From Candidatus Cloacimonadota bacterium (GTDB taxonomy: Bacteria > Cloacimonadota > Cloacimonadia > Cloacimonadales > TCS61): DNA of 45,377 nt. The notes beneath the pieces were generated by a model. That model did no database searches. It saw only the letters and a program-made list of their open reading frames with translations, and was not told where the DNA came from. Location: the NCBI GenBank assembly GCA_016935235.1, contig JAFGRJ010000124.1, forward strand, positions 1 through 45,377, in the 5' to 3' direction. Positions 3,424 through 32,189 of the stretch are shown in pieces (position 1 is the first letter of the stretch; each line of letters begins with the position of its first letter). A program made the position numbers and the translations under genes.

Positions 3424-6141
3424 TCAGTCAACTGTTATGGATTTGGATACATTTTTGGGCACGTCCGGATGGACTCCGTGTTCCATGATACCGAGTTTAT
3501 CCAGTTTTTCCTTTTTCTTGATACTCATCCGCAGAGCCAGAAGCTGCAGCACGATTGTAGCAGAAAAGGTGGTCATCAGGGAATCGCCTGTCTTGGGCAG
3601 GATAATGTAACTCCAGCCGTAGTATCCCTCATCATTGGGATTCATGCGTGCATTTTCCAGTAACTCGTCATTTTCCTCAGCTATGACAAAAGTATCGCCC
3701 CCGCGGATTTTATGAGTGTTGATCTGGGATATGGTCAAATTGATGTCCTGTTCTTCCGGTCCGGTTACATAGATCAATGGGTAATTCCTGTAGACATGGC
3801 TGAAAAAATCACGTTCAGAGACGAAATTCTTGAAGAATTCAGCTCCTTCCCGGGAAAGGTCAAAGGGGAAAGTCCTCTTGAATATATAATTTACCAGAGA
3901 CTGGGTCATGCTTCTGATCTCTAGTTCCGGAATACCTTCCTCCCGGGCGGAAGATTCCAGTTCAATTGTCAACTGATTGTAGTTTTTCAACATTGCCTTC
4001 ATATTTTTAATACCGAAGACAGTATTTCTTCCCAGGATTGTATTGGGACCATGTTTGAATTCGGAAGCTTCACCGCCCTCAGCATGATTTAGAACCGTCT
4101 CCCTTATCTTGAGAGCACCTTCCTTGGCTACACCGGTGAGTTTAGTGGCCAGAATATGCATGGAAGGTTCCATGTATATTTTCCCGGCAGCATATTCGAT
4201 CTGTTCCGCGGTTGTTTCGATTGTTTCTTTGATGAGTTGGGGTATGTCGTTAATGGATTTCAGGCGGGTTGTCAGTTTATGATTGAGGAGAGCTGTTTTC
4301 TCCTGATCTGCAGAACTAATATTCCTGATATTCTGCTCCAGCACCTTGATAGCCAGGTAGTAGAAAAGGGTTATCTGGTTGATGAAACTTTTAGTTGCCG
4401 GTACAGCGATTTCCGGGCCACAGAAAATCGGGATTGAAACATCGCATTTTTCCTGTCCCAGCGTGGAATTCATATTATTAACCAGTACAATGGTTTTAAT
4501 ATCCAGTCCGAGATTCTCCACATAATTGAAGATATCGATCAGATCCTTGGTTTCACCGCTCTGGGATACACCCAGGATAACATCATTATTGCAAAGGCTT
4601 TTGGAGAACTGTCCCCGGAAATTACCGGGGAGCACGGGTATTATGTCCAGATTGGCGATATCATTGAAGAAAATGGAAGCGATCATGGCAGCATGGAAGG
4701 ATGTCCCACAGGCAATGGCATAGATATTACGGTTGAACCTGCAGCTGTTTGCAACTATATCAAGGAAATGTTCGATGCTCTGATTGAACTCCTTGACATC
4801 ATTCATCTCGCTGATCGAATCCAGCGCTTTGGCGAGGAGCAGTTTTTTCTTGTTGAAATATGAGTTCAGGAGTTCAATAAAAGTGTTTTTATTGGCAGAA
4901 AAGAAGTATTTCTTCTCAAAATCTTTCTTTACCAGTTCATTGTAAATGGAAACATACTGTTCTCTGACTTTCTGATAGAATGCATCGGCTTTTACGGAAG
5001 ATTCAAACCTGGAAAACAGGTTCGTCTGTTGGACCGGATCCTCGGTTTTAAGGATGTTTCTGCCCAGATCTTCGATATCATCAAAGAAATTTTCCTTTTT
5101 TAGCAGCTCAATCATACGGGTTCCCGTATTTGAGCCACCCTGGAAAAGCTTGATAAGCTTACCGGAGGTTTCAACTTCCGCATAGATTTCCTGCTCCATG
5201 AAATACTGAAAAGGGGGAACCAGTTCTGTGTCCTCTGCTCTCAGTTTTGATCTTACCGGCTGTTTGGGGATATGGTCACCCGGATTGATTATGAATTCAG
5301 CCTGGTTAGGTCGCTTGATCTTGAGTTTGCGGAGGGCGAAGATCTTATAGTCATCAACTTTGAATTCCACGAACTCACCTTCACGAAGATTAATCAGGGT
5401 TTTGGTGAATTTAAGTACAGCAGTAAGATCGGAAGAAGCCAGTCCAAACCTGTTACCCTCTATTTCACCGATGCCAAAATACAGGCTGCTCCCGCCCTTG
5501 ATAGCGTAAATGAATTCGGTATAGGGGTCCACAATCACAGCGGCATAGGAGCCCACCATCCTGGAACTGGCAATGATTATGGCATTGCGCATGGACTGGC
5601 AGCGAATCTGGGGATTGTGCTGGTCCCTGTCGCCGTGTCTTCCCAGTTCATTATCGAAATAATGCTCAATAGTATGAACCAGCATTTCGCCATCATTATT
5701 GGAAACAACATTATGACCTTCTGAGATCAGGAAACTTTTCAATTCCCGGGAATTGGTGATATTGCCATTATGAGCACCATAAATGTGCTGCTTGCATTTT
5801 ACTTCATGGGGTTGAGCGTTCTTGGGTGTGACAGTGCCAAATGTCGCCCAGCGAACCTGACCACAGAAAATTTTTCCCTGCTGCTTATCGATTCCCAGTG
5901 TTTTGACCAGAGTACTGGGTGCTCCTACATCCTTAAGCAGAATGATATTTTTCTTACCATCCTGGAATACACCGCCCGTGGAATCATAACCCCTGTATTC
6001 AAGGGCTTTTAGCAGTGTGGCAGCGTACTGGCCGAGCTTGACACTCACCCGGGCAAGTCCCAAACCCAGCACACCACAGCCCAGACCGGGGATAGGTATA
6101 TTAATCGTAAAATCAAATTTTCTTAATATCTTTTCTATCAT
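3424..6141 (-). CDS. glmS: Glutamine--fructose-6-phosphate aminotransferase-like protein (atypically long, 905 aa)
   Basis: CGVLG, LEYRGYDS, RWAT, QPH, HNG, ACGTS, SQSGET, GPEIAVPATK, EGALKIRE, KHGP and C-terminal PKNVSKSITVD. Has an N-terminal extension and two insertions. Confidence 0.85.
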   Translation of the reverse strand: MIEKILRKFDFTINIPIPGLGCGVLGLGLARVSVKLGQYAATLLKALEYRGYDSTGGVFQDGKKNIILLKDVGAPSTLVKTLGIDKQQGKIFCGQVRWATFGTVTPKNAQPHEVKCKQHIYGAHNGNITNSRELKSFLISEGHNVVSNNDGEMLVHTIEHYFDNELGRHGDRDQHNPQIRCQSMRNAIIIASSRMVGSYAAVIVDPYTEFIYAIKGGSSLYFGIGEIEGNRFGLASSDLTAVLKFTKTLINLREGEFVEFKVDDYKIFALRKLKIKRPNQAEFIINPGDHIPKQPVRSKLRAEDTELVPPFQYFMEQEIYAEVETSGKLIKLFQGGSNTGTRMIELLKKENFFDDIEDLGRNILKTEDPVQQTNLFSRFESSVKADAFYQKVREQYVSIYNELVKKDFEKKYFFSANKNTFIELLNSYFNKKKLLLAKALDSISEMNDVKEFNQSIEHFLDIVANSCRFNRNIYAIACGTSFHAAMIASIFFNDIANLDIIPVLPGNFRGQFSKSLCNNDVILGVSQSGETKDLIDIFNYVENLGLDIKTIVLVNNMNSTLGQEKCDVSIPIFCGPEIAVPATKSFINQITLFYYLAIKVLEQNIRNISSADQEKTALLNHKLTTRLKSINDIPQLIKETIETTAEQIEYAAGKIYMEPSMHILATKLTGVAKEGALKIRETVLNHAEGGEASEFKHGPNTILGRNTVFGIKNMKAMLKNYNQLTIELESSAREEGIPELEIRSMTQSLVNYIFKRTFPFDLSREGAEFFKNFVSERDFFSHVYRNYPLIYVTGPEEQDINLTISQINTHKIRGGDTFVIAEENDELLENARMNPNDEGYYGWSYIILPKTGDSLMTTFSATIVLQLLALRMSIKKKEKLDKLGIMEHGVHPDVPKNVSKSITVD

Positions 6142-6853: not shown

Positions 6854-8590
6854 TCAGAAGCTAAACCCTTTTTCCTGAAACAGTTTCAAGCAGGCATCCA
6901 CAGTATCTGCATCATACAGGATACCTTTATTCCGGTCAATTTCCTCCAAAGCGCTTTTAATATCCATCTGTGGCCGGTATGGTCTGTGATTGATCATCGC
7001 TTCGGTCACATCCGCTACACATAGTATCCTGGCTTCAGGCAGTATTTCCCCTTTTTTCAGTCCTCGGGGATATCCTGAACCATTCATCAATTCATGGTGC
7101 TGCAGAACAATATCCGCTATGGGTTCTGGGAAGGCAATAGTATTGAGTATTTCATAACCGGTTTGAGGATGCAGTTTTATCAGGTCGAGTTCGGCTTTCA
7201 GCAATTTTCTTCCCTTTGCCAGGATATCGGAGGGGACATTCAATTTACCTATATCATGCAGTTGAGAAGCGGTGTATAATTTTTCTATCTGCTGTTCCGG
7301 CAGATTCATTTCCAGTGCAATTGCTTCCGCCAGCTTTGCCACGCGCCGCTGGTGTTGAGCGGTATAGGGATCCCTGATCTCTATGGCTGCTATAAGACCT
7401 TTAACGGTGTCATGATACAGTTTCCTGGACTTAAGATAACTCATACGCAGCTTTATCTTGTCACTTCTCTTCTCGGTAATGTCATGCAGTATTGCTATAA
7501 ATCCCCGGAATTGCCCATTCTCGCTCATCGGTATGTGAGTAAGTGTGATATATTTTCTTCTTTCCTTTCCTTTTCCCAGAGTAAATTCGCTACTGGTGGT
7601 TGCAGAGGTTTCAGATCTACTGTCGCATATTTCCACAAATCGTTGCAGGTGGCTGAATTCGGAGAGATTTCTGCCCACGGCATCCTGTTCCGGTAATTTA
7701 AGCATCGCAATTGCAGCTTGGTTAATGAAACTCAGTATACCGGAGTCATCAACAATCAGAATTCCTTCTTTTATCGAAGAAACTATATTTCGCAGGTCTT
7801 CCTCTTTTTTCCTGGTATCGACCAGTGTGTTGTAACATTGGGTGATATCGGTTATAATGCCCTGAAGAGCAACTGGTTGTCCTTTGTCCCCCCAGGTAAT
7901 GACATTGGTCTGATGGAACCACCTGGGATTACCAGAGCTATCTATGATCTTGTACTCATAATAGGGAGGTGCTTTCCCCGACACTATTTTCTGCCATTCC
8001 TCTTCATAGTATTTCTTCATATCAGGATGCAATAATTTGCACAATAGATCAGGAGTATCATAGAAAGCCTTCTGATCGTAACCGGTCAACTTCTTACAGG
8101 CGGGATTGATGAATTCGATTTTTCGGTCTGGTATTGAGATCTTGAAAATAATATCACCCAGATCAGCTGTCAGCCGCGAATACATTTCTGTGCTATGATG
8201 CCTTATTTTATCCTGTTCATGCTTGTAAAGGGCGATTTCCATAACCGCTTTAAGTTCAGATACCTCGTAAGGCTTCATTATATAGCCATAGGGTTCTGAG
8301 GTCACAGCCTTCTGGATCGTCTGCCTGTCGGCATGAGCGGTAAGAAAAATTACCGGGATATTCATTTCTTTATACATTATCTCAGCAGCTTGAGTTCCTT
8401 CCATTTTTCCGGACAGCACAATATCCATGATAACCAGGTCGGGTTTTTCCTGCCGGGCTGTGATGAGTGCTTTCTCTGCAGTGTTGACAGCTCCCAGGGC
8501 AACATAACCAAATTGCTTCACATTCATCCGGATTTCTTCTGCAATGATGTTCTCATCTTCCACAATTAATATTTTTTTTCTAGATGACAT
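6854..8590 (-). CDS. Response regulator with REC-PAS-PAS-HD-GYP architecture (cyclic dinucleotide phosphodiesterase)
   Basis: REC (ILIVEDE, VIMDI, FLTA, KP), two PAS/PAC repeats, and HD-GYP motifs (RDPYT, LHDIGK, HHE, GSGYPRGL, HRPYR). Confidence 0.92.
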   Translation of the reverse strand: MSSRKKILIVEDENIIAEEIRMNVKQFGYVALGAVNTAEKALITARQEKPDLVIMDIVLSGKMEGTQAAEIMYKEMNIPVIFLTAHADRQTIQKAVTSEPYGYIMKPYEVSELKAVMEIALYKHEQDKIRHHSTEMYSRLTADLGDIIFKISIPDRKIEFINPACKKLTGYDQKAFYDTPDLLCKLLHPDMKKYYEEEWQKIVSGKAPPYYEYKIIDSSGNPRWFHQTNVITWGDKGQPVALQGIITDITQCYNTLVDTRKKEEDLRNIVSSIKEGILIVDDSGILSFINQAAIAMLKLPEQDAVGRNLSEFSHLQRFVEICDSRSETSATTSSEFTLGKGKERRKYITLTHIPMSENGQFRGFIAILHDITEKRSDKIKLRMSYLKSRKLYHDTVKGLIAAIEIRDPYTAQHQRRVAKLAEAIALEMNLPEQQIEKLYTASQLHDIGKLNVPSDILAKGRKLLKAELDLIKLHPQTGYEILNTIAFPEPIADIVLQHHELMNGSGYPRGLKKGEILPEARILCVADVTEAMINHRPYRPQMDIKSALEEIDRNKGILYDADTVDACLKLFQEKGFSF

Positions 8591-8724: not shown

Positions 8725-9060
8725 TTAATGATCGCAGGGATTAGTTCCCGTTTCCAGTTTGTTCTCAAGAAAGAGGTTGATCAAATCCTGCGGCAACTGA
8801 CCTGTGGCTCCGGTTATAACCTCGATATTCTGCATGTTGAAATGCTGTCTGGCTCTATGTCCCATGCCACCACATATGACAACACTGATTCCCTTATCAG
8901 CCAGGAAATGAGGATATGCTCCCGGTTCATGGACGGGTGGTATAAGAGTCTCCTCGCTTTTGATTTCTTTATTATCAACGGTGTAAACAGCAAAATTCTG
9001 ACAATGACCAAAATGCTGTGCTAAAAGCCCATTATTCACCGGTATAGCTATTTTCTTCAT
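8725..9060 (-). CDS. NifB/NifX family (IPR003731-type) metallocluster-binding protein
   Basis: KIAIP, HFGHC, ICGGMG and C-terminal NPCDH. Start at ATG 9060 after AAGGAG. Confidence 0.9.
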   Translation of the reverse strand: MKKIAIPVNNGLLAQHFGHCQNFAVYTVDNKEIKSEETLIPPVHEPGAYPHFLADKGISVVICGGMGHRARQHFNMQNIEVITGATGQLPQDLINLFLENKLETGTNPCDH

Positions 9061-9113
9061 TTTATCTCCTTTTAAACTGAAATCCAATATTATCGGAAGA
9101 GCAACAGACGGAT

Positions 9114-9452
9114 TTAAAACTGCTTCAACTTATTATCCTTATACGCACGGTATGCTTCATCGACCGTCATACCACCTGCTCCTACCAATATCCTGACGCC
9201 TGACGTGTTAAGAACTCTGGCAGCATTATTGCCGGGACCATTTCCAGTAATAAGGACACCGACTCCTGCTTCAATAATCTTCTGGGCTGTCCTCGGCCCG
9301 GCTCCATGAGCAACACTGGTTATGGCACTGTTGTCGATAATCTGTTTACTGTTATCTTTCTCGTCAAGGATGATAAAATACTCCGACCGGCCAAAGCGAG
9401 GATCGATCGGTGAATTCATCTCCAAACCCGTTGTACTGAAAGCTATTTTCAT
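9114..9452 (-). CDS. NifB/NifX family protein (MTH1175/IssA-like)
   Basis: MKIAF, DPRFGRSEYF, HGAG, LITGN.PG.NA. Confidence 0.9.
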   Translation of the reverse strand: MKIAFSTTGLEMNSPIDPRFGRSEYFIILDEKDNSKQIIDNSAITSVAHGAGPRTAQKIIEAGVGVLITGNGPGNNAARVLNTSGVRILVGAGGMTVDEAYRAYKDNKLKQF

Positions 9453-10336
9453 GTATCCTCCCCTGATATCTGTTTCAAAATAATATCCCAGGAATTGTTT
9501 ATCTTCAGGATGATATTTTCGGCATCAGTCTCCATAATGGTTTTTCCCGCTATCATCGCGTCTGAGAATGATCTGGAAAAAGGTATTTCAGCCAGCAGGG
9601 CTATTTCCCTGCTGACCAGGAAATCCTTTATTTCTGAGCTTATCTTCTCATTGAGGTCGCATTTATTTATGATACATCCTGCTGGCAGTCCAAACTTGCT
9701 TAACAGTATGTGTACCCTTTGCAGATCGTGAAAGGCGGAGCGACTGGGCTCGGTTACCATGACAACATAACCTGCTCCGGCAAGAGATGATATCACTGGA
9801 CAACCGATACCGGGGGAACCATCTACCAGGATAATATTTATTTTCTCCTTCTCCGCCAGCTTTCTGGCTTCTTTTTTCACTTTTGTGACCAGCTTTCCGG
9901 AATTTTCCGCCCCTATATCAAGTTCTGCATGAACAAGGATATTATCAAATCTGGTCTGTGAAATCTGAAAAATTCCGACTTTTCTTTCCGGTAGTGAAAT
10001 AGCCTGCTCCGGGCATATATGGAAACAATATCCACAACCCTCGCAGGATAGAGGATCTACAGAAAATCCCGTTCCGCCCGCATTGATTGCGTGGAAGCGG
10101 CAGATCTGAAAACATCTGGCACATGACGAGCAGAGGGAAGTGTTTATTTTTGCTTCCACACCACTGAAAAAAATCTCGGAAAGAATAGCCTGTGGCCTCG
10201 TTACAAGATGCATATCGGCAGCATCAACATCGCAGTCAGCCAGGATACAGTTTCCCCCTAATAGATAAGACATGGCGGCAGTGATCGAGGTTTTCCCGGT
10301 TCCACCCTTGCCTGATATAAAAACGATCTCTTTCAT
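9449..10336 (-). CDS. MinD-superfamily P-loop ATPase with inserted 2x[4Fe-4S] ferredoxin domain
   Basis: SGKGGTGKT, DCDVDAAD, CSSCARC..C, CEGCGYC...CP, ENSGKLV, DGSPGIGCPV, VTEP. Confidence 0.92.
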   Translation of the reverse strand: MKEIVFISGKGGTGKTSITAAMSYLLGGNCILADCDVDAADMHLVTRPQAILSEIFFSGVEAKINTSLCSSCARCFQICRFHAINAGGTGFSVDPLSCEGCGYCFHICPEQAISLPERKVGIFQISQTRFDNILVHAELDIGAENSGKLVTKVKKEARKLAEKEKINIILVDGSPGIGCPVISSLAGAGYVVMVTEPSRSAFHDLQRVHILLSKFGLPAGCIINKCDLNEKISSEIKDFLVSREIALLAEIPFSRSFSDAMIAGKTIMETDAENIILKINNSWDIILKQISGEDT

Positions 10337-11187
10337 GCCAGTTGCAGGTTATTCGCTATTACACTCAAGGCTTCCCGGATCACCGGGATCTCCTGATACA
10401 ATAATCTGCCTGCGGAATATAGCTCCGCGGCTCTTCTCATGTAGGGTATACAGGCAATTATTCTGTAATTCGCAGAATGGCAGAATTCAATAATGGTACT
10501 GTCAAATTCATCTCCTGCCTGATTCAGGACAATGCTGAAGGATTTATCCAATTTCTCCATGGTTTTTATGGCCAGCTTCAGGTCATGAAAACCAAAAGGA
10601 GTTGGTTCTGTGACCAGAATTACATGTTCAGCGGATTTTGTGACCTCTAGCATGGGACATGATGTACCCGGGGGAGAATCAAATATGAGAAGATCGTCAC
10701 TTGCTGCAATTCCTTTCAGATAGGATATGGTAGCGGAGATAAGAGGTACTGCTGAGACCTGTCCTATCTCCAGGTGGCTGTCGACCAGCTGGAGTTTCTT
10801 GCTGATTATGGAATGATAGAGAATACCACCTGTTTCACCGTGCATGGGCAGGGATGAAGTGGGACATAATTCCGAACAGGCAAAGCAACTATGGCACAAC
10901 TCCGGGAAAAGCATTATTCGATCCGGTATTTTCAGAACTGCGTTAAATCTGCATAATTCCTGACACTTACCGCACATTATGCAGGTGCGTTCAATCCACT
11001 CCGGGATCATCCTGCATATCTTTTCGGAATGAACCTGCCTTCCTTTTAAAAAAATACCGGAATTCGGTTCTTCCACATCAAGATCAGCCAATATAACCTT
11101 CCGCTTCTCCGCCAGAAATGCCGAGAGATTCACCGCCAGGGTAGTTTTTCCTGTTCCACCTTTACCGCTGGCTATGGCAATGATCAA
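10333..11187 (-). CDS. MinD-superfamily P-loop ATPase with inserted 2x[4Fe-4S] ferredoxin domain
   Basis: SGKGGTGKTT, DLDVEEPN, CIMCGKC...C, CHSCFAC...CP, DSPPGTSCP, VTEPTPFG.HDL. Confidence 0.92.
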   Translation of the reverse strand: MIIAIASGKGGTGKTTLAVNLSAFLAEKRKVILADLDVEEPNSGIFLKGRQVHSEKICRMIPEWIERTCIMCGKCQELCRFNAVLKIPDRIMLFPELCHSCFACSELCPTSSLPMHGETGGILYHSIISKKLQLVDSHLEIGQVSAVPLISATISYLKGIAASDDLLIFDSPPGTSCPMLEVTKSAEHVILVTEPTPFGFHDLKLAIKTMEKLDKSFSIVLNQAGDEFDSTIIEFCHSANYRIIACIPYMRRAAELYSAGRLLYQEIPVIREALSVIANNLQLA

Positions 11188-11438
11188 TCCACTACCTCAA
11201 TTTCCTTGATCTGCCTGGCAGTGCTTTCAGGTATTTTCCCTTGTTCAGGTTGGCTTATTCTTTGTCTGATGCTATTATAAAGCCGCTTTAATCTGCTTTC
11301 AGGTTTCGTCAGATCCTCGATAATATACCCGGCTAACCCGGAAACTATCGTGAAAAGAAGAGCTCCCGAACTTCGACCTGACTTCCTGCTGTCCCCGCTA
11401 TACCGATTAACCCTTTCTCTCTTTCGCAATCTTAACAT
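11184..11438 (-). CDS. Small hypothetical membrane protein
   Basis: Fills the operon gap and its stop overlaps the next start by 4 nt. Basic N-terminus and one hydrophobic segment (ALLFTIVSGLAGYII). Start uncertain (ATG 11438). Confidence 0.6.
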   Translation of the reverse strand: MLRLRKRERVNRYSGDSRKSGRSSGALLFTIVSGLAGYIIEDLTKPESRLKRLYNSIRQRISQPEQGKIPESTARQIKEIEVVD

Positions 11439-11463
11439 CTGTGTTCTCACGCAGGGGATTTTT

Positions 11464-11772
11464 TTACTTTTCTTTCTTCTTGTTTTCCAGAGCTTCCAGC
11501 CTTGACCGCATTGCGTCCAGTTGACCATTCATTCTCTCGATTTCTTTCTCGAGAAATTCCTTTTCATCGTACTCTACCGGTTCTGGGTAAGGATAATACT
11601 CAGGCATATATCTGCGAAATCCCCCGAAAAAACGGCGAAATCCCATCCTCAGATGACGGCGTGGCTGATAAGGATTGGCATATCCGGGTCGATCATAACC
11701 TGCACAATAACCTGCCCCTCTTCCAGTCATGGGACCAAATCCATCCGGTCCAGTTCTATCTCCTCTTGGCAT
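11464..11772 (-). CDS. DUF5320 family protein
   Basis: MPRGDRTGPDGFGPMTGRGAGYCAG N-terminus, R/G/Y-rich middle and C-terminal coiled coil. GGAGGT RBS before ATG 11772. Confidence 0.9.
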   Translation of the reverse strand: MPRGDRTGPDGFGPMTGRGAGYCAGYDRPGYANPYQPRRHLRMGFRRFFGGFRRYMPEYYPYPEPVEYDEKEFLEKEIERMNGQLDAMRSRLEALENKKKEK

Positions 11773-11774
11773 AA

Positions 11775-12227
11775 TTACCTCCCTCGTCTTTTTCTTTTTG
11801 CACAACAATTACCATGACCGAAACCACCAGCAAGATCTAGCAGATTTGCCGAATCGCAGGCAGGACAGGAGACAATAGGCTGGGTGAAATCATTTTTGAA
11901 CAAATGCCCACAATCCAGACAACGGATCAGATTTCCCCGGAAATGAATATTTCCTCCCGCGATAACGAGCTCTCTACCTTCTATCAGAAATTCAGCTATT
12001 TTGCTGCGGGCTTTTTCGATCAACCTGGTGAAAGTTGACCGTGAGATTTCCATCTCATCAGCTGCTGACAGATGATCGTGCCCCAGAAAATCAGCAAGCC
12101 GGATTGCCTCGAATTCATCAAGACTGAGCTGAATCGGGGTTAACTGGCTGCGCTGGATCCTTATGGGCTTGAATTCAGTATAGAGCGGTGGCTGTCTCAC
12201 TGTTCTCTCTTTCTGTGGTCGAGTCAT
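11775..12227 (-). CDS. DUF134 (UPF0251) predicted DNA-binding protein with C-terminal Zn-ribbon
   Basis: RP.K.R, FKP, LSLDEFEAIRLAD, AADEMEISRSTF.R, CLDCGH...CPAC and a CC tail. AAGGAG RBS before ATG 12227. Confidence 0.9.
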   Translation of the reverse strand: MTRPQKERTVRQPPLYTEFKPIRIQRSQLTPIQLSLDEFEAIRLADFLGHDHLSAADEMEISRSTFTRLIEKARSKIAEFLIEGRELVIAGGNIHFRGNLIRCLDCGHLFKNDFTQPIVSCPACDSANLLDLAGGFGHGNCCAKRKRRGR

Positions 12228-12251
12228 GCATTCTCCTTTATCATGGGAGGC

Positions 12252-12280
12252 ATTATTTTGCACATATGTTCATTAGTCAA
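12252..12280 (-). promoter_or_regulatory. Putative promoter TTGACT-N17-AATAAT with a palindromic operator TGAACATATGTGCA in the spacer
   Basis: A 14-bp imperfect palindrome (12259-12272; 6 of 7 pairs) lies between the -35 and -10-like hexamers upstream of the DUF134 gene. Confidence 0.55.
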
Positions 12281-12318
12281 GCAAAAATTTACTGCAGTCA
12301 GTTAAAAGATATCAGAAT

Positions 12319-12555
12319 TCAACGGGAATAGAATTCCTCCAGGATATTTATTATTTCCTGCTGTCTCTGGCTGGCTTCTTCCTCTGTGGGAAAGGACAGG
12401 ACAAATTTAGAGAATTCTTTACTATCGTAACCGAGTTCCAGATAAAATTCTTTCAACTTGTTATTGTAATTGATCATGGAGATATAGGATATCCTGGAAA
12501 GAAGGATTTTATATCCGGCATAGGTAGAATTTGCGAGTTCCAGAAAGACCGACAT
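12319..12555 (-). CDS. Hypothetical protein (78 aa)
   Basis: GAGGT RBS, co-oriented with neighbours and fills the gap. No family recognised. Confidence 0.65.
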   Translation of the reverse strand: MSVFLELANSTYAGYKILLSRISYISMINYNNKLKEFYLELGYDSKEFSKFVLSFPTEEEASQRQQEIINILEEFYSR

Positions 12556-12595
12556 AGTTACCTCGTATTCTTATATTGGAGCTGATTCCGCCAGG

Positions 12596-12919
12596 TCAGC
12601 TTTGTTTGTTGATTTCTTCCTCCGCCCAGTTCAGGGCAGCTGCCACGTTGGGAAAGCCGATGGTGCTGGTGAGGGCGATAAGAGCGTGGAATATTTCGTC
12701 CTTGGATGCACCGGCTTCTAGGGCACGTCTTACGTGACTGTGCACGGAACCTTCCGATCTGATGGCAGCGGCTCCTCCCAGCTGAATTAGCTGCAGGAAT
12801 TTTTCTTTCAGGGGACCTTCCTGTCGTGCTGTTTTGCCCATTTTTTCAACAGATTTGATAAATTCTGGATATTTTTCTTTAAGATAATTATACCATGCGG
12901 GTGTGTTATGGTCTGACAT
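12596..12919 (-). CDS. Carboxymuconolactone decarboxylase (CMD/AhpD-like) family protein
   Basis: LIQLGGAAAIRSEGSVHSHVRRALEAGASKDEI, TIGFP. GGAGGT RBS. No CxxC motif. Confidence 0.9.
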   Translation of the reverse strand: MSDHNTPAWYNYLKEKYPEFIKSVEKMGKTARQEGPLKEKFLQLIQLGGAAAIRSEGSVHSHVRRALEAGASKDEIFHALIALTSTIGFPNVAAALNWAEEEINKQS

Positions 12920-12973
12920 TTTTACCTCCTGCATGTAAATTACAGAGAAGATTAGGATAACACAAGGAAAATA

Positions 12974-13912
12974 TTAGGTCTTGTTAATCAGATAGAAATT
13001 ATTGTTTTTCTGACGCTCCGTTCTGATGATATTTCTCTCCAGAAGATCAGCCAGATATTTGCCGAGTTCATTGGGATGGAGGTTTAAAGCCTTTGCCAGA
13101 TCTTCGCTGGTGGCAGGTCTCCTTTTCAGAAAATCAATGATTGTTCCCTCAAAATCGGAGTCTAATCTTGTGATGTCATCGGTGAAAGTTTTCCTGGTTA
13201 TATATTCTGCAGGTAAGGGGGCAAAGAACCTGACAATTTTCTTTAATTTCTCTTCCGTAGGGTCAGTTACCCATTTTTCTGTTCCGGGTCGATCAAGAGT
13301 ATTGATCTGAATTTTATCGGGTTTGATTTTGTTAACTGCCAGACGGAGATGATGCAATTCCTGTTCGGTATCGTTCAAACCGGGAATTATAAAGATTTCC
13401 AGCCAGATTTGCCCCTGAAATTCATTTCTCAGCTGGATTAATCCCGTAATTATATCGGCAGCGCTTATCCCTGGGGCAGGGCGGTTAATTTTCCGGAAGA
13501 TTTTTTCGCTGGCAGCATCGAGAGAAGGGAGGATGAGATCGATTTTTTTAAGATCCTGCCTTACTTCCGGTTGCGGGAGCAGAGAGGAATTTGTCAGCAG
13601 TGCCAGAGCATATTGAGGAAACTCGGTTTTCAGAAAGGCGGTTATTTCTCTGATGCCACTATGCAGGGTAGGTTCCCCGGAGCCGGAGAAAGTTATGAAA
13701 TCCAGAAGTGGCTTGGACTTCAGATAATCTGTCAATTCCTTGATTAAACCTGCTACCGGGATATATTCCTTTCTGGTGCTGGTAAGATGTGTGGTTGCTC
13801 CCAATTCACAATAAACGCAATTAAAACTGCAGTATTTAAAGGGAACCAGATCCACACCCAGTGATATTCCCAGGCGTCGGGATGGTACGGGTCCGAAGAG
13901 GTGCTTATACAT
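12974..13912 (-). CDS. Radical SAM protein (COG0731-like) with C-terminal winged-helix-like tail
   Basis: FGPVPSRRLGISLGVDL, CSFNCVYC, SGSGEPTL, LTNSSL, SLDA, NTLDRP. C-terminal RRPATSEDLAKAL. Confidence 0.92.
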   Translation of the reverse strand: MYKHLFGPVPSRRLGISLGVDLVPFKYCSFNCVYCELGATTHLTSTRKEYIPVAGLIKELTDYLKSKPLLDFITFSGSGEPTLHSGIREITAFLKTEFPQYALALLTNSSLLPQPEVRQDLKKIDLILPSLDAASEKIFRKINRPAPGISAADIITGLIQLRNEFQGQIWLEIFIIPGLNDTEQELHHLRLAVNKIKPDKIQINTLDRPGTEKWVTDPTEEKLKKIVRFFAPLPAEYITRKTFTDDITRLDSDFEGTIIDFLKRRPATSEDLAKALNLHPNELGKYLADLLERNIIRTERQKNNNFYLINKT

Positions 13913-13943: not shown

Positions 13944-15608
13944 CTATATCTTTTCTTTGATCTGATTTTCCACGTTCAGAGCGGTATTGTTGATATGGTC
14001 CAGCATTTCCTCCACCCTGGTCATGATCTCGAACTTGAATTTTTCATCCTTAATACCGGACATATTTATTTTAATGTTAAGGTAAGCGCTCTTGGCGGCG
14101 GCGTTAGCGTTTATTGCAGCCACTCCCGCATCGGATAGAGCATTGCTGTTCCCTATCATACTGATCCTGGCTGCCAGATCCACTGCTTCTCCAGCTGACT
14201 GCAGCGTCGCCAGAGGCACCATGACAGCGGCCTTGGTTGCACTCTCCATTATTTGCTCTCTTTCTTCTTGCTGCTCCGGGGTTTGTTTCGGTAAGCGGCT
14301 AGCCTCCATCATTTTGTTGAACGCTTCAGTATCTTTATCAATCAACTCCAGTGCTTTTTTCTGGATTTCCTGACCCTGTTCAGCAATTTGATTAGCTTCC
14401 TGCCAGACTTTCTCGTAATTTTTTTTCCCGAAAGTGAGATTTGCCACCATGGCAGAAAGAGCACCGGACAGAACTGCACAAAGAGCCGCCACACTACCGC
14501 CACCGGGAGCCGGGGAATCGGAAGAAAGTTCGGCGGCGAAATCTTCCACCGGGAGGTTTACCAGATTGTTTTTATTCCTGATAGCGTATTCGATAATCTT
14601 CTCATTGGTGGCGAAAGGTACTAGATCATCCAGTCCCATGGACTGGATGGCAGTTTCGATAATCATCTTTTCAGGGATACCGCTGCATTCCCCCAGGCGA
14701 TTCAGGTAATATTTCCCGGCAGCGATGATGGCAGCTTTGGGGATGAGCCCCACCAACTCGCTTCCGGTGACCTGGATACCCTTCTGCATTGCCAGTTCAC
14801 GGATTTTTTCCAGAACCAGATGAGGAGGAGTTATCTTATAGTTGGTAAGATTAATACTTATCTGAGCTCTTCTGTATTCATCAATGTACCAGCCCACTGC
14901 TTTACAGTGCTTGAAAAAACCCGGTTCCCTGATTCGGGAACCTTCCTCGTCCGTTACTACGTTGCTTTTCCTGTCTCTTTTCAGGCGACCTTTCTCCCTG
15001 ATCATAAGGGCCAGGTCGTGGGCTTTTTTCTTATCACGGGTATTGAGATTGATGTTATAGGCGATAAGAAATTCCCGGGCGCTGATGGCAGTTGCCCCGG
15101 AGCGGACGTTGAATTTCTGGGGACCGTAATCAGGTTTCCAGACGGGATCCTTCATTTTCTCGGGGAGAGCCTCATATTCTCCCTTTCTTACTTCGGCCAG
15201 ATTCCGCCATTCCGGTTTTGTGGCGGCATACTCGTAAAGGTAAACTGGTATTCCCAGTTCTTCGCCTACTCTTTTTCCCAGTTTATGGGCCAGTTGCACG
15301 CATTCTTCCATCGTAATATCGGATACAGGTACAAAAGGACAAACATCAGTTGCCCCCATCCTGGGATGAGCTCCCGAATGTTTGCTCATGTCTATCAATT
15401 CGGCAGCTTTCTTTATGGCCTGAAAAGCACCTTCCACAACACTTTCCGGATCTCCCACAAAAGTAACTACCGTGCGATTGGTATCGGCACCGGGGTCAAC
15501 ATCAAGAAGAGTTACACCTTTCACCGAACGTATCGCATCAGCTATAGCATCAAGGATCTTATGGTCTCTGCCTTCACTGAAATTTGGAACGCATTCAACT
15601 ATTTTCAT
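13944..15608 (-). CDS. ftcd: Bifunctional glutamate formimidoyltransferase / formiminotetrahydrofolate cyclodeaminase
   Basis: VECVPNFSEGR, HSGAHPRMGATDVCPF, GSELVGL in the transferase part. APGGGSVAA and SDAGVA...NIKIN in the cyclodeaminase part. Start at ATG 15608 after GGAGGT. Confidence 0.95.
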   Translation of the reverse strand: MKIVECVPNFSEGRDHKILDAIADAIRSVKGVTLLDVDPGADTNRTVVTFVGDPESVVEGAFQAIKKAAELIDMSKHSGAHPRMGATDVCPFVPVSDITMEECVQLAHKLGKRVGEELGIPVYLYEYAATKPEWRNLAEVRKGEYEALPEKMKDPVWKPDYGPQKFNVRSGATAISAREFLIAYNINLNTRDKKKAHDLALMIREKGRLKRDRKSNVVTDEEGSRIREPGFFKHCKAVGWYIDEYRRAQISINLTNYKITPPHLVLEKIRELAMQKGIQVTGSELVGLIPKAAIIAAGKYYLNRLGECSGIPEKMIIETAIQSMGLDDLVPFATNEKIIEYAIRNKNNLVNLPVEDFAAELSSDSPAPGGGSVAALCAVLSGALSAMVANLTFGKKNYEKVWQEANQIAEQGQEIQKKALELIDKDTEAFNKMMEASRLPKQTPEQQEEREQIMESATKAAVMVPLATLQSAGEAVDLAARISMIGNSNALSDAGVAAINANAAAKSAYLNIKINMSGIKDEKFKFEIMTRVEEMLDHINNTALNVENQIKEKI

Positions 15609-15748
15609 GAAACCTCCGATCAATCAGTTAATATTCATTTTCCACAGGCAGTAGCACGTTTTACCGATCTTCTCTATGAAATCAACCTGGCTTTATAACC
15701 TGATATATTAAGGATATTCTGCATTTTCAACACCTGTTTGCTAACTTC

Positions 15749-26845: not shown

Positions 26846-27835
26846 CTATCTCATCTCAATAGCAGCCTTGGGACATACCTGATAACAGATTTCGCAACCG
26901 ACGCATTTGTCCAGATCGATCTTATGGATCTTCTTGGCTTCTCCGCTGATCGCTTGCACAGGGCATTTCTTAGCGCATACGGTGCAACCGATGCATTTGT
27001 CTTCCAGAATGACTGCTTTTTTGCGTTTTCCCGCCAGGGGATCGATTATTGCCAGGGTGGGACATACGGTTGCGCAGAGTCCGCAACTTACACACTTCTG
27101 ATAATCAATCACTGCCAGGTCCTCCACCATGCTGATCGCCTCAACAGGGCATTTCTTGACGCAAAGCCCGCAGCCTATGCAGGCGGTATTATTACCACAC
27201 CTTTTCCTGGCTTCAGCTCCCTTGTCGTGAGATGTGCAGAGTATGTGTACCTTTTTAGCATATGGCACCAGCTCGATCAGATGACGGGGGCAGGCTTTCA
27301 CACAGGCACCGCAGGCTGTGCATTTCTGGGGATCAATGATTCTCATGCCATTTTTATCCAGATGGATTGCATCGAATTTACAGGCATCGATACAGTCATT
27401 CTGAAACAGACAACCCCAGCTGCAGAGATTGGGACCTTCGGAAACCAGAACAGCTGCCTTGCAGGTTGGGATTCCCTGATAATGGTAGCGAAAGTATGTA
27501 TTGTTGTATCCACCACTCTGGCAGTGAATAACAGCCACCTTCTTCTCCATGCTGGCAGCCTTTATGCCCATGATGGCAGCTATCTGCTTCACTGCTTTTT
27601 CCCCGCCGGGAGCACATTTATTGATCTCTTCGCCCTTACCGGCAATCGCTTCCGCGTAAGCAAAGCAACCGGGGTGACCACAGGCACCACAATTAGCTCC
27701 TGGTAGGATTTCATTGATAAGTTCTATCTTGGGATCGACCTCAACATGGAACTTCCGGGAAGCAAAAGCTAATCCCAGTCCGTAAAATAAACCCAGCACA
27801 CCAAGAGTGGCGATCGCATAAAGTATGATTGTCAT
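26846..27835 (-). CDS. rnfB: Rnf complex subunit B (polyferredoxin type)
   Basis: N-terminal TM, LPGANCGACGHPGC, then six ferredoxin-type Cys motifs. Confidence 0.95.
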   Translation of the reverse strand: MTIILYAIATLGVLGLFYGLGLAFASRKFHVEVDPKIELINEILPGANCGACGHPGCFAYAEAIAGKGEEINKCAPGGEKAVKQIAAIMGIKAASMEKKVAVIHCQSGGYNNTYFRYHYQGIPTCKAAVLVSEGPNLCSWGCLFQNDCIDACKFDAIHLDKNGMRIIDPQKCTACGACVKACPRHLIELVPYAKKVHILCTSHDKGAEARKRCGNNTACIGCGLCVKKCPVEAISMVEDLAVIDYQKCVSCGLCATVCPTLAIIDPLAGKRKKAVILEDKCIGCTVCAKKCPVQAISGEAKKIHKIDLDKCVGCEICYQVCPKAAIEMR

Positions 27836-27844
27836 GGTAACTCC

Positions 27845-28432
27845 CTAAAACTTTAAACCAGCAAATCCCTGAAAGGCGAGAGCCATGCAGCCGGCAATGA
27901 TCATGGCTATGGGTAGCCCCTTCATGGCTTTGGGCATTTCGGCTTTGTCGAGTTTTTCTCTTATACCAGCCATCAGAATTAATACCAGGGTGAACCCGAG
28001 TCCGGCAAAGAAACCATTCAGGATTGCTTCGATGAAGTTGAGCTTTTCATTTATATTCAGAAGGGCGACCCCCAGGACGGCGCAGTTGGTAGTGATCAGG
28101 GGCAGATAAACACCCAGTGCCTTGTACAAAGCCGGTGCGGTTTTCTGGATGATCATTTCTACCAGTTGTACCAGGGAGGCTATGGTCAGGATGAAGGCGA
28201 TTGTCTGCAGGAATTCGATCTGCAGGGGAATCAGGAGATAAGACTGAATAAGCCAGGTAAAAGTTGATGCCATCGTCATGACAAATATGACAGCCATGCC
28301 CATGCCGAGTGCAGAATCGAGTTTTTTGGAAACTCCGATGTAAGGACACAAGCCAAGAAAACGCATGAGAACGAAATTCTTGACCAGTATGGCTGCAATA
28401 GCCAGGGAAAAAATCTTGCTCATGAATTCCAT
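27845..28432 (-). CDS. rnfA: Rnf complex subunit A
   Basis: NFVL.RFLGLCP, LGVYLPLITTNCAVLG. Confidence 0.96.
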   Translation of the reverse strand: MEFMSKIFSLAIAAILVKNFVLMRFLGLCPYIGVSKKLDSALGMGMAVIFVMTMASTFTWLIQSYLLIPLQIEFLQTIAFILTIASLVQLVEMIIQKTAPALYKALGVYLPLITTNCAVLGVALLNINEKLNFIEAILNGFFAGLGFTLVLILMAGIREKLDKAEMPKAMKGLPIAMIIAGCMALAFQGFAGLKF

Positions 28433-28446
28433 CTATCTTCTCCGCT

Positions 28447-29031
28447 TTATTTCTTCAATAATTTCATCAGACCCATCAACAGACCCATTACCAGAAAAGC
28501 ACCGGGTGATAAGATCGCCGCCAATACTGGTTTATAGCTGAGAGGGAGGACATTGTAACCGAGAAACTGCCCTGCTCCTATAATTTCTCTGATGCCGCCG
28601 ATTACAATTAGTGCCAGGGTAAAACCGAAACCCATACCAACACCGTCCGCAAGCGATTTGATCACATTATTCTTGCCGGCAAAGGCTTCCGCTCTTCCCA
28701 GTATGATGCAGTTGACCACAATGAGGGGAATGAAAAGACCCAGATTCTTATGTAACATGGGAAAATAGGCATGCATGACCAGATCCACTATGGTAACGAA
28801 GGAGGCTATGACCACGATATAGGAAGGGATGCGGATCTTGGTGGGGATGAAATTCTTGATCAATGATATTATGACATTGGAACAGACCAGAACAAAGGTG
28901 GCGGCTATTCCCATACCTATCGCATTCTGCACGGAAGTAGTTACAGCAAGGGTCGGGCATAGACCAAGAGCCATTATGAAAACCGGATTCTCTTTGATTA
29001 AACCTTTACTGAATTCTTTAATCATGCTCAT
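28447..29031 (-). CDS. rnfE: Rnf complex subunit E
   Basis: ENPVF...LGLCPTLAVTTS, IRIP, FIPLIVVNCIILGRAEAFA. Confidence 0.96.
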   Translation of the reverse strand: MSMIKEFSKGLIKENPVFIMALGLCPTLAVTTSVQNAIGMGIAATFVLVCSNVIISLIKNFIPTKIRIPSYIVVIASFVTIVDLVMHAYFPMLHKNLGLFIPLIVVNCIILGRAEAFAGKNNVIKSLADGVGMGFGFTLALIVIGGIREIIGAGQFLGYNVLPLSYKPVLAAILSPGAFLVMGLLMGLMKLLKK

Positions 29032-29594
29032 CGCTCATTCTCCTCACCTGTTTGCAGATCGGTTTCAGCTATTTTTTTCTCCATGATTTCCATACCACTC
29101 CTTATTGAACTGGCAATGGTTCTGGTTGTAATGGTCGCTCCAGTTATACTGGCAATGCTACCGCCATCCTTGTCCACCTGCATCTCTGTTTTATCCTTTC
29201 CGGAGAACTGCTCCTGGAATTCACTTTTGCTGCAATTAGCTCCCAGGCCTGGTGTTTCTTGCTGTTCGATTATTTTTATTCGGGTAATATGAAAAAGAGT
29301 GTCCAGACCCACCATGGTTTTCACTTCACTGCTGTAACCGTAAAGGGAAGCCACAAAAGTATAACCCACTATTTTGTCTCTATCCAGGGCTATGTAGGCT
29401 GTCTCGCCGTTGAGGAAAGTAAGACTGTCAAATGAGGTTGCCTGAGGAAGAACCTCTTTCCGGGCTTCTTCTTTTTCCCGACGTTTATTTTCATCAATGA
29501 TGGGTTTGGTAATGCTGTTTACATAGGCCAGAATACCACTGGAAATAACTGCTATGACCAGCAGAACAAATCCCAGTCTTATATAGTATTTCAT
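29028..29594 (-). CDS. rnfG: Rnf complex subunit G
   Basis: N-terminal TM, GYS, ETPGLG, and the FMN-attachment motif ITGATIT. Confidence 0.95.
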   Translation of the reverse strand: MKYYIRLGFVLLVIAVISSGILAYVNSITKPIIDENKRREKEEARKEVLPQATSFDSLTFLNGETAYIALDRDKIVGYTFVASLYGYSSEVKTMVGLDTLFHITRIKIIEQQETPGLGANCSKSEFQEQFSGKDKTEMQVDKDGGSIASITGATITTRTIASSIRSGMEIMEKKIAETDLQTGEENER

Positions 29595-30640
29595 TTTGCT
29601 GCCTCCCCGAAAGGTCTGGGTATGGTGTAACGATCAATCAATGGAACCGCAATGTTCATCAGCAGTATTGAATAAGATACTCCTTCCGGATAACCGCCCA
29701 CGAACCTTATGATAACCGTCAATATTCCGCAGCCGATACCAAAGATCAACCTCCCCTTTTTGGTGACAGGGGAAGTGACCATATCGGTGGCCATGAAGAA
29801 AGCTCCCAGGATCAAACCACCGGCAAAAATGTGAAAGATCGGCAGGAACAGGGAAGCGGAAAACAGCCCGTTAATACCGCCAAAAATATAGGTCAGGACG
29901 AATACGGTGGTAATGTAGCTGACAGGGATTCTCCATTCGATTATATGTTTATAGGCCAGATAAGCAGCTCCTATCAGCAGGGCGGCTGCCGATATCTCTC
30001 CCAGACAGCCTCCGATATTTCCCCAGAAAACGTTCACTATCGTATCCATATTGGCCAGCTTGTTCATTACCACTTCAGCGATGTCGGGACTTATCTGGGT
30101 TGTATCACGCAGGGCTTTTGCTACTCCCAGGGGAGTTGCCGTAGTTATAACAGCAGGTATATTGGCGGGAAGATTGGAGAGACCGTTTATTGAACCCAGA
30201 CTGGTCTTCTCCCAACCTGCGGTCATCAGTGTGGGCCAGGAGGCTACCAGAAAGGCTCTGCCCAGCAGGGCGGGATTGAAAATATTGTAACCCAATCCAC
30301 CAAAAATCTGTTTGCCTATGGCGATGGCAAAAAAGGCTCCCACGACAGGAATCCACCAGGGAGCGCCAGCATTGATGTTAAAAGCCACCAGCATACCGGT
30401 TACAACAGCACTGCCATCGGTTATTGTTATTGGCACTCTCCGTAATTTCTGGATCAGAGCTTCCGTTATAACAGCAGCAGCAGCACCATACAGGGTCAAC
30501 AGTAAGGCTCTCATACCAAAGAAATACAGAGCTGCCAGCAGTGCAGGTAACAAGGCCAGTACTACCTGCCACATCACTGTCCTTACTGAAATATGCTGCT
30601 TGATATGAGGAGCTGCCGAAACAGAATATACATTATTCAT
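29591..30640 (-). CDS. rnfD: Rnf complex subunit D
   Basis: APH, DGSAVVTG, KQIFGGLGYNIFNPA, TATPL, GCLGEIS, FMATD.VTSP, YPEG. Confidence 0.96.
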   Translation of the reverse strand: MNNVYSVSAAPHIKQHISVRTVMWQVVLALLPALLAALYFFGMRALLLTLYGAAAAVITEALIQKLRRVPITITDGSAVVTGMLVAFNINAGAPWWIPVVGAFFAIAIGKQIFGGLGYNIFNPALLGRAFLVASWPTLMTAGWEKTSLGSINGLSNLPANIPAVITTATPLGVAKALRDTTQISPDIAEVVMNKLANMDTIVNVFWGNIGGCLGEISAAALLIGAAYLAYKHIIEWRIPVSYITTVFVLTYIFGGINGLFSASLFLPIFHIFAGGLILGAFFMATDMVTSPVTKKGRLIFGIGCGILTVIIRFVGGYPEGVSYSILLMNIAVPLIDRYTIPRPFGEAAK

Positions 30641-30675
30641 TGAACCTCCGGGAATTTAAAATAAGATCTGGTTCT

Positions 30676-31998: not shown

Positions 31999-32189
31999 AT
32001 TTTCTCCCAGACTATTGAATTTTTGCTTACGTATTTTTTTTATTGGATTACTACATTTAAAAGTCATAATTTTAAAGCAAGGATTTTTTCTGTTCATAAG
32101 AAAGCGGGGATATGAATTCAGATAAATATAGACAAAAATCGTGTTATCCAACCTTATGCTCCGCAAATGGTAAGAATCTGGAATATCTG

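Follow-up and report, generated by a model that had tools for sequence, protein, structure and literature searches.

The question raised by this locus is what kind of system is encoded by a tight run of genes for two iron-sulfur (Fe-S) ATPases and two NifX-type carrier proteins, and where that system begins. The locus lies in a window (the whole stretch of DNA analyzed) of 45,377 nt from Candidatus Cloacimonadota bacterium (GCA_016935235.1, contig JAFGRJ010000124.1; assembly 93.5% complete). An earlier description, made from the letters only and hereafter called the sequence-only reading, had placed ten open reading frames (ORFs) at 8725..13912, all on the minus strand, and had treated them as one uncharacterised system with no assigned function. 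All ten ORFs were found at these places and most were confirmed by Pfam. We found that the seven genes running from 12227 to 8725 are a real minus-strand operon, which is probably related, in compact form, to the cluster for the orange protein (ORP) complex of Desulfovibrio and has its own putative small DNA-binding regulator. The system is a variant of a known, functionally unsolved kind. The genes and sites of the operon are as follows.

11775..12227 (longest ORF to 12263), minus strand: DUF134 protein, 150 aa; PF02001, 1e-20.
11464..11772 (longest ORF to 11808), minus strand: DUF5320 protein, 102 aa; PF17253, 1.3e-25.
11184..11438 (longest ORF 114 aa, to 11528), minus strand: small basic protein, 84 aa; clade-specific profile.
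10333..11187, minus strand: ATPase A, 284 aa; Pfam CbiA/ParA-type and Fer4.
9449..10336, minus strand: ATPase B, 295 aa; Pfam CbiA/ParA-type and Fer4.
9114..9452, minus strand: NifX1, 112 aa; Nitro_FeMo-Co (PF02579), 1e-16.
8725..9060 (longest ORF to 9087), minus strand: NifX2, 111 aa from ATG 9060; Nitro_FeMo-Co, 2e-19.
12252..12280, minus strand: promoter-like site TTGACT-17-AATAAT; consensus match.
12259..12272, no strand assigned: palindromic operator candidate TGCACATATGTTCA (plus-strand letters); recurrence in related loci.

Three of the four-nucleotide overlaps reported earlier were confirmed (small ORF, or orf114, with ATPase A; ATPase A with ATPase B; ATPase B with NifX1). Reading of the DNA and comparison with homologues suggested that several genes start later than their longest ORFs, the probable start codons being ATG 12227 for DUF134, ATG 11772 for DUF5320 (2 nt past the DUF134 stop), ATG 11438 for the small ORF and ATG 9060 for NifX2. 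No nitrogenase-type gene (PF00148) was detected in the window, in agreement with the earlier account, or in the whole assembly, and the only two PF02579 genes of the genome are those of the operon; on these grounds a nif role was dropped.

The closest described system is the ORP complex of D. vulgaris. Orp3 and Orp4 are alike and have two [4Fe-4S] motifs apiece, the small Orp5 has a [2Fe-2S] protein as a homologue, and Orp8 is an ORP homologue with a non-covalent S2MoS2CuS2MoS2 cluster (PMC6345978). In Orp9 (MrpORP), a fusion joins an Mrp/NBP35 domain to a Di-Nase domain, the latter containing CxHFGHCE and, at its end, CDH (PMC6345978, Pardoux et al. 2019). Orp3, Orp4 and Orp8 co-purify and accept Fe-S clusters from MrpORP in vitro (PMC6345978). 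Because the parts of the window set match this description one by one, we liken it to the ORP complex, and the label "uncharacterised" gives way to a described relative (2WFB, E 1.2e-15; NF041136, E 8.2e-35).

In the PDB, NifX1 matched 1RDU (TM1816, E 1.9e-16), 2WFB (D. gigas ORP, over residues 2–108 of the 112, at the E-value just given) and 1EO1 (MTH1175, 3.1e-14). An alignment of 61 sequences contained invariant RFGR, HGA and TxNGPGxNA motifs and no Cys in any invariant or near-invariant column. Judged by these matches, NifX1 is a cysteine-free Nitro_FeMo-Co protein of the ORP/TM1816/MTH1175 subfamily, Orp8-like in being a single-domain ORP homologue without cluster-ligating Cys.

This likeness bears on one alternative, namely that the system handles thiometallates (Mo, W or Cu), with NifX1 binding a Mo-Cu-sulfide cluster as D. 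gigas ORP does and serving thiomolybdate or copper chemistry in sulfidic habitats. Such a proposal agrees with the cluster carried by ORP/Orp8, with the shared lack of conserved ligating Cys in NifX1 and ORP, and with the frequency of metal transporters (ArsP_2-type permease, ZIP) in related loci. However, the window contains no molybdate, tungstate or copper genes, and the recurrent partners of the cluster are Fe-S assembly parts, namely Mrp and, in two loci, NifU_N/IscU. We regard thiometallate handling as improbable.

NifX2 gave no match to 2WFB at E <= 0.01, and its PDB relatives were PH0822 (2YX6) and TM1290 (1T3V, 1O13). It matched positions 262–365 of the 365 of the NCBIfam MrpORP model NF041136 (E 8.2e-35, 121 bits), and a 277-aa Mrp protein encoded on contig C163 of the same genome matched positions 1–249 (E 2.5e-103, 346 bits vs 244 bits to ApbC). 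Neither protein alone attains the 450-bit cut-off of the model. The HFGHC motif and terminal CDH, which the sequence-only reading had correctly noticed in one NifX protein, both lie in NifX2, and an alignment of 43 homologues showed little or no variation in them; NifX2 has Ala in place of the first Cys of CxHFGHCE. In a related locus (L011), an Mrp half and a Di-Nase half are adjacent genes with a 4-nt overlap. Since the two proteins match separate parts of the MrpORP model and are adjacent genes in L011, Orp9 is encoded as two proteins in this lineage, and NifX2 is, by its profile match, the detached C-terminal (Di-Nase) half of MrpORP/Orp9. A fused Mrp/NBP35–Di-Nase protein was not found; both halves exist, separately encoded, and they are unlinked in the window's genome (operon vs contig C163).

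Both ATPases are MinD/CbiA-type proteins with a deviant Walker A motif and an inserted 2x[4Fe-4S] ferredoxin domain; they share this architecture at 26% identity, and Pfam matches together with eight invariant Cys in each bear out the earlier description of two paralogous MinD-type ATPases. Among 61 sequences, the invariant positions of ATPase A include GKGGTGKT, C69/72/75/79, C98/101/104/108, D170xPPGTSC177P and C236. ATPase B has the same eight ferredoxin Cys (69, 72, 75, 79, 98, 101, 104 and 108) together with C35, C179 and C221; in its GKGGTGKT motif, T13 is kept in at least 90% of the sequences and the other positions are invariant. A Cys seven residues past the Walker B Asp is kept in both proteins (C177 in A, C179 in B), at the place in switch II that we take to correspond to the [4Fe-4S] ligand of NifH. 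A PDB sequence search matched the ATPases to ferredoxins and to MinD separately, and to no protein over their whole length. The AlphaFold2 model of ATPase B (pLDDT 91.8) was most similar to archaeal MinD, FlhG, FleN and Soj in Foldseek (top matches 1ION, 1HYQ and 1G3Q, probability 1.00), with nitrogenase-type Fe proteins lower in the list. By the GKGGxGKT signature lysine motif of both and the MinD-like fold predicted for ATPase B, the ATPases belong to the MinD/ParA (SIMIBI) class. A complex prediction for ATPase A, ATPase B and NifX1 (NifX1 as the partner) gave a score of 0.23, the mark being 0.32, and counts neither way.

The same folds could point to cell division or positioning, with the MinD-like ATPases acting as spatial regulators and the metal clusters merely as redox sensors. 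In the literature, MrpORP localises to a cell pole and the ORP complex is putatively involved in division (PMC6345978; PMC4641369, table), and the nearest solved folds of ATPase B are proteins of this kind. On the other hand, fold likeness mirrors the ATPase class rather than the role, and the queries used showed no division genes beside the cluster among the 80 related loci described below, its partners there being Fe-S, metal and redox proteins. A division role therefore seems a poor candidate.

To see which genes belong together, we fetched 80 related loci with ATPase B (51–58% identical) from Bacteroidales, Cloacimonadota, Calditrichota, Spirochaetia, Kapabacteria and others, and placed the window proteins in them by tblastn. 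Because many of these loci end at contig edges, counts over all 80 are lower bounds, and we also give counts for a subset of 47 that extend 4 kb or more upstream and 1.5 kb or more downstream. The first figure in each line refers to all loci and the second to the subset.

ATPase A: 76/80; 46/47.
NifX1: 75/80; 46/47.
DUF134: 49/80; 34/47.
DUF5320: 46/80; 31/47 (partial matches to the Gly/Arg head included; 26 loci match over at least 85% of the length).
NifX2: 45/80; 28/47.
Cys-rich small protein: 36/80; 27/47.
MBL-fold protein: 16/80; 14/47.
Small-ORF family: 17/80; 7/47.
Mrp: 10/80; 6/47.
Radical SAM: 8/80; 6/47.
CMD: 0/80; 0/47.
78-aa ORF: 0/80; 0/47.

The commonest gene order is DUF134, DUF5320, small proteins, NifX2, ATPase A, ATPase B and NifX1. 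NifX1 follows ATPase B in all 75 loci that have it, and the order of the window, with NifX2 directly after NifX1, was seen in only two loci (L035 and L041). These data suggest a stable core of two Fe-S ATPases and an ORP-like carrier, a frequent shell of DUF134, DUF5320, the Di-Nase half and the Cys-rich protein, and a loose periphery beyond. In two Bacteroidota loci, a gene for a NifU_N/IscU-type scaffold lies between NifX2 and ATPase A (L006:6728-7123; L009:6670-7062), and this insertion ties the cluster to Fe-S assembly.

A variable same-strand accessory neighbourhood also recurs downstream of NifX1 in six loci (L012, L021, L025, L036, L055 and L073). It includes extra Nitro_FeMo-Co proteins of 130–143 aa, CGGC (PF08821), ARMT1-like/DUF89 (PF01937), TrmO_N (PF01980) and an ArsP_2 permease with ten transmembrane segments (PF11449), as well as Cupin_7, DUF364, MBL-fold proteins, SAM methyltransferases, glyoxalase, class I/II aminotransferase, ZIP and FeS_assembly_P. 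Of the accessory genes searched for, just two kinds turned up in the genome of the window, CGGC (contig C104) and TrmO-like genes (C125 and C152), and neither is linked to the operon. Directly downstream of NifX2 in the window (6854-8590) is a response regulator gene encoding two PAS domains and an HD-GYP-type HD domain, with partial matches in 2 of the 80 loci (L036 and L042).

DUF134 is the first cluster gene in most loci. Its protein contains a helix-turn-helix, a four-Cys ribbon and a GFGHGxCC tail, with a weak Sigma70_r4_2 match besides PF02001; C103, C106, C121 and C124 are invariant and the tail near-invariant in 43 sequences. No solved relative was found in the PDB. The 91 nt that separate the 78-aa ORF from DUF134 contain the promoter-like site TTGACT-17-AATAAT (10 of 12 consensus matches), which is followed by an AAGGAG ribosome-binding site and the DUF134 start codon, and the palindrome TGCACATATGTTCA lies between the two promoter hexamers.

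We searched 933 kb of related loci with the palindrome pattern with an AT-rich centre and obtained 74 sites. Forty-eight of them precede DUF134 by no more than 400 nt, again between promoter-like hexamers; they belong to 43 of the 49 loci that have a DUF134 match. Where the first gene found is not DUF134, a canonical palindrome stands directly before DUF5320 (five loci), ATPase A (three) or NifX2 (one); the remaining 17 sites are mostly degenerate AT-rich words. In the window's own genome, the looser pattern TGMAC-N4-GTKCA gave seven matches vs about eight expected, and an ATAT (AT-rich) centre occurs only at the window's site, which alone is credible among them. The palindrome in the promoter before DUF134, recurrent at cluster heads, is new here. 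Because TGMACATATGTKCA recurs in this position in 43 of 49 DUF134 loci, the operon starts at DUF134; by the same evidence, DUF134 is likely the operon's regulator and the palindrome a candidate operator. No precedent for a DUF134-TGMACATATGTKCA pair was found in the literature searched, nor any paper on the function of DUF134 or DUF5320, in searches that covered few subscription journals.

A copy of the operator with two mismatches, TGCACATATGCTTA, is present on contig C91 of the same genome (C91:2512-2525, locus L082), about 205 nt upstream of a Cys-rich small protein gene, and it may mark a second DUF134 target. The genome has 35 sites with two mismatches, this one among them, beside a single exact site, that of the window. 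The orp operons of D. vulgaris use sigma-54 and OrpR, with redox potential sensed via an Fe-S cluster (PMC8359166). The sigma-54 pattern TGGCAC-N5-TTGCW, with up to two mismatches, had no minus-strand match in the 8.7–14 kb region and occurred at chance level in the window (23 found vs 21.6 expected).

Three further genes of the sequence-only reading lie upstream of this start, in the same orientation.

12974-13912, minus strand: radical SAM protein, outside the system; PF04055, 1.1e-15; weak winged-helix-like C-terminus.
12596-12934, minus strand: CMD protein, outside the system; PF02627, 7.7e-15.
12319-12555, minus strand: 78-aa ORF, outside the system; ORF only.

In a ten-gene unit, these genes would cooperate with the operon, for example in making an organic or carbide cofactor part for the NifX proteins. 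The sequence-only reading had suggested analyzing their co-occurrence, which we did in 121 genomes of the phylum, the window's own included, with ATPase B scored at E <= 1e-40. The radical SAM gene was present in 120 genomes, mostly as a single copy, vs 88 for ATPase B, and 33 genomes had radical SAM without the ATPase. The two genes shared a contig at a spacing of 1.5–12.8 kb in seven genomes, all of the window's family; in 20 genomes of other families, their spacing on one contig was between 20 kb and 2.3 Mb (tables read by eye). CMD was found in the window's own genome only, and the 78-aa ORF, which like the 114-aa ORF belongs to no Pfam family, had no relative among 5.8 billion clusters. 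Radical SAM shows no co-dependence with the operon, and promoter and conserved operator place the start of the operon downstream of all three genes.

A closer connection of radical SAM could be argued from its homologues, which 8 of the 80 loci, from three phyla, have on the same strand at a distance of no more than 8 kb (46–54% identity over the full length; in L036, 33% over 70%). In four Bacteroidales loci and Caldithrix, the homologue lies 5–7 kb downstream, amid recurrent accessory genes (extra NifX-like, CGGC, TrmO_N, ARMT1-like, ArsP_2, MBL and methyltransferase genes). Yet unrelated genes intervene between radical SAM and DUF134 in L012, L013 and L069, and no operator was seen upstream of radical SAM. 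Its link to the operon could be read as pure local synteny; as accessory neighbourhoods recur and there is neither operator nor co-dependence, radical SAM is better viewed as a loose, non-core neighbour. For CMD and the 78-aa ORF, membership is largely refuted. Since CMD is absent from the other 120 sampled genomes, it was probably gained recently together with the orphan ORF, and the pair look like a lineage-specific insertion. We judge all three genes to be outside the system, and a ten-gene unit to be very improbable.

The radical SAM protein has an N-terminal FGPVPSRRLG, a CxxxCxxC motif and a C-terminal winged-helix-like stretch. It attains no curated NCBIfam cut-off and no nifB-level score, so it is regarded as a conserved enzyme without assigned role; in the window's family it adjoins a formiminotransferase-cyclodeaminase gene (13944-15623). 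The CMD protein has SEGSVHSH at the place where AhpD-type members presumably carry CxxC.

The small proteins of the cluster bring in another alternative. DUF5320 has a basic head rich in Gly, Arg, Pro and aromatic residues and a coiled-coil-like acidic tail (27-sequence alignment). The 84-aa small basic protein contains one hydrophobic helix (a 15-residue stretch) and a DLT motif, and had been called a transmembrane orphan; eleven Cloacimonadota loci have an ORF of 83–112 aa in the same position, after DUF5320. A profile of these 11 proteins had the window small ORF as its only significant match in a six-frame search of the whole genome (E 2.8e-4) and found the family in 17 of the 80 loci, and in L058 the same hydrophobic helix stands behind a DUF5320-type head (PF17253, 1.1e-6). 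We infer from this that the small ORF is a clade-specific, DUF5320-related cluster member rather than an orphan. In the ESM Atlas, no match of this protein exceeded 0.86, which is lead level only. In most loci there is also a Cys-rich small protein of 57–97 aa with a Gly/Arg head and a CVCxxCG...CxxxxCPxCG tail, which has no family name in any library searched, homologues in 36 of the 80 loci and 90 unnamed relatives. That of the window's genome (72 aa, Gly/Arg head, seven Cys), encoded on contig C91 ahead of a methyltransferase and an MBL-fold gene, may be the Orp5 counterpart.

It is possible, if doubtful, that the system is a store of iron sulfide like IssA of Pyrococcus, in which NifX1 nucleates a thioferrate polymer, DUF5320 and the Gly/Arg-rich proteins serve as a separate cationic tail, and the ATPases load or mobilise the store, buffering or detoxifying iron sulfide at high sulfide. 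The 70-residue tail of IssA (11 Pro, 7 cationic, 14 aromatic and 15 Gly; pI 10.7) is proposed to wrap anionic thioferrate, and MTH1175, a leading PDB match of NifX1 in our search, belongs to the proposed IssA clade (PMC5524996). Residues 1–66 of DUF5320 resemble this tail in composition (10 Pro, 11 R+K, 13 aromatic, 12 Gly; pI 10.0), but this likeness is one of composition, not homology. Moreover, NifX1 and NifX2 terminate with the domain and have no C-terminal tail (112 and 111 aa), NifX1 is at least as close to ORP, with its discrete Mo-Cu cluster, as to MTH1175, and the 'CobQ' genes of Palaeococcus are known from annotation alone. The sequence-only reading had given SipB as a radical SAM protein; the table in PMC4463584 lists it as 'ATPase C-terminus'.

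DUF5320, the hydrophobic-helix protein and the Cys-rich protein of C91 share a basic Gly/Arg-rich head. It is conceivable, on balance against expectation, that these proteins are free-standing counterparts of the IssA tail, wrapping an anionic iron-sulfide or thiometallate species nucleated by NifX1, with the ATPase heterodimer loading or releasing the store by ATP and low-potential electrons and DUF134 sensing the same chemistry with its six cysteines and gating the operon from the palindrome. If true, ORP-type clusters, widespread as they are among anaerobes, would serve as a regulated buffer of metal sulfide and not for cell division.

We favor ATP- and redox-coupled handling of metal-sulfide clusters as the best, and a fairly likely, account of the operon. 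DUF134 would bind the palindrome overlapping its own promoter and gate the whole operon, probably answering redox or metal state via its six cysteines, analogous to OrpR of the Desulfovibrio orp operons. ATPases A and B may pair into an ATP-dependent MinD/NifH-like (SIMIBI) heterodimer, each subunit carrying two [4Fe-4S] clusters for electron transfer and the invariant Cys past the Walker B Asp. This dimer would dock cysteine-free NifX1, which may hold an anionic metal-sulfide species non-covalently, as ORP does; the Cys/His motifs of NifX2 may hold an Fe-S cluster, the Mrp half, a product of its own gene, may mature the Fe-S sites of the ATPases, and the basic Gly/Arg-rich small proteins may aid in binding or organising anionic cluster cargo. 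Overall, the system would load, hold or pass on Fe-S or metal-sulfide clusters where conditions are strongly reducing and sulfidic. That the ATPase pair loads NifX carriers, as previously proposed, thus stands in outline, through the homologous ORP complex in which Orp3, Orp4 and Orp8 co-purify, and falls as a ten-gene unit.

Several points weigh against this account. The putative orthology of the ATPases to Orp proteins rests on architecture and neighbourhood. The promoter hexamers are a mere consensus match, such sites being no commoner in the region than in shuffles. With no sigma-54 promoter and no OrpR, regulation differs from that of the studied ORP system, and the candidate Orp5-like protein lies outside the operon, on contig C91. 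The ORP complex is itself without established biochemical function, cell division being the sole role proposed in the literature searched (PMC6345978).

Elsewhere in the window, a complete-looking operon for an Rnf-type, ion-translocating ferredoxin:NAD oxidoreductase (RnfC, D, G, E, A, B; 26846-32220) fits a strictly anaerobic, ferredoxin-based metabolism. A 905-aa protein (3424-6141) combines glutamine amidotransferase and SIS domains; ordinary GlmS is much shorter.

Among known systems, the proteins NifX and NafY and the C-terminal domain of NifB share with the window carriers the Nitro_FeMo-Co (PF02579) fold, a carrier of complex metal-sulfur clusters. Unlike NifB, the carriers have no radical-SAM fusion (TIGR01290 nifB, 16 bits vs the 343-bit cut-off), and unlike in nitrogenase cofactor assembly, the genome has no NifD/K-type genes. 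The closest solved relatives of NifX1 (TM1816 and MTH1175) and of NifX2 (PH0822 and TM1290) were solved as hypothetical proteins by structural genomics, and their entries assign no function. IssA/SipA of Pyrococcus furiosus belongs to the same IPR003731/Nitro_FeMo-Co fold family and its basic Gly/aromatic/Pro-rich sequence has a compositional parallel on DUF5320. It differs in that NifX1 and NifX2 have no long cationic tail, the basic segment being on a separate protein, and two Fe-S ATPases are core parts here.

The comparison with the ORP complex of D. vulgaris Hildenborough is the closest. Both have two paralogous MinD-type ATPases with two [4Fe-4S] motifs each (a likeness by architecture), a cysteine-free single-domain Nitro_FeMo-Co protein homologous to ORP, and a Di-Nase domain with HFGHC and CDH, for which a matching Mrp/NBP35 P-loop protein exists in the genome; in both, the host is an anaerobe in which no nitrogenase genes were found. 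Unlike the two divergent orp operons, the window has a single operon, with a DUF134 gene and a palindromic operator candidate in place of the sigma-54 promoter and OrpR. In addition, it has DUF5320 and a clade-specific small basic protein, its MrpORP is split into two genes on different contigs, and the gene for its candidate Orp5-like Cys-rich protein lies elsewhere. Few conserved gene sets that lack a biochemical function are as widespread in strict anaerobes as ORP-type clusters. On its own the window contributes little that is unique, but the comparison gives a clearer view of core, shell and periphery and reveals MrpORP as a split gene, and the putative DUF134-TGMACATATGTKCA pair is a concrete regulator and operator with which expression studies could ask which signal (redox, sulfide or iron) turns the system on.

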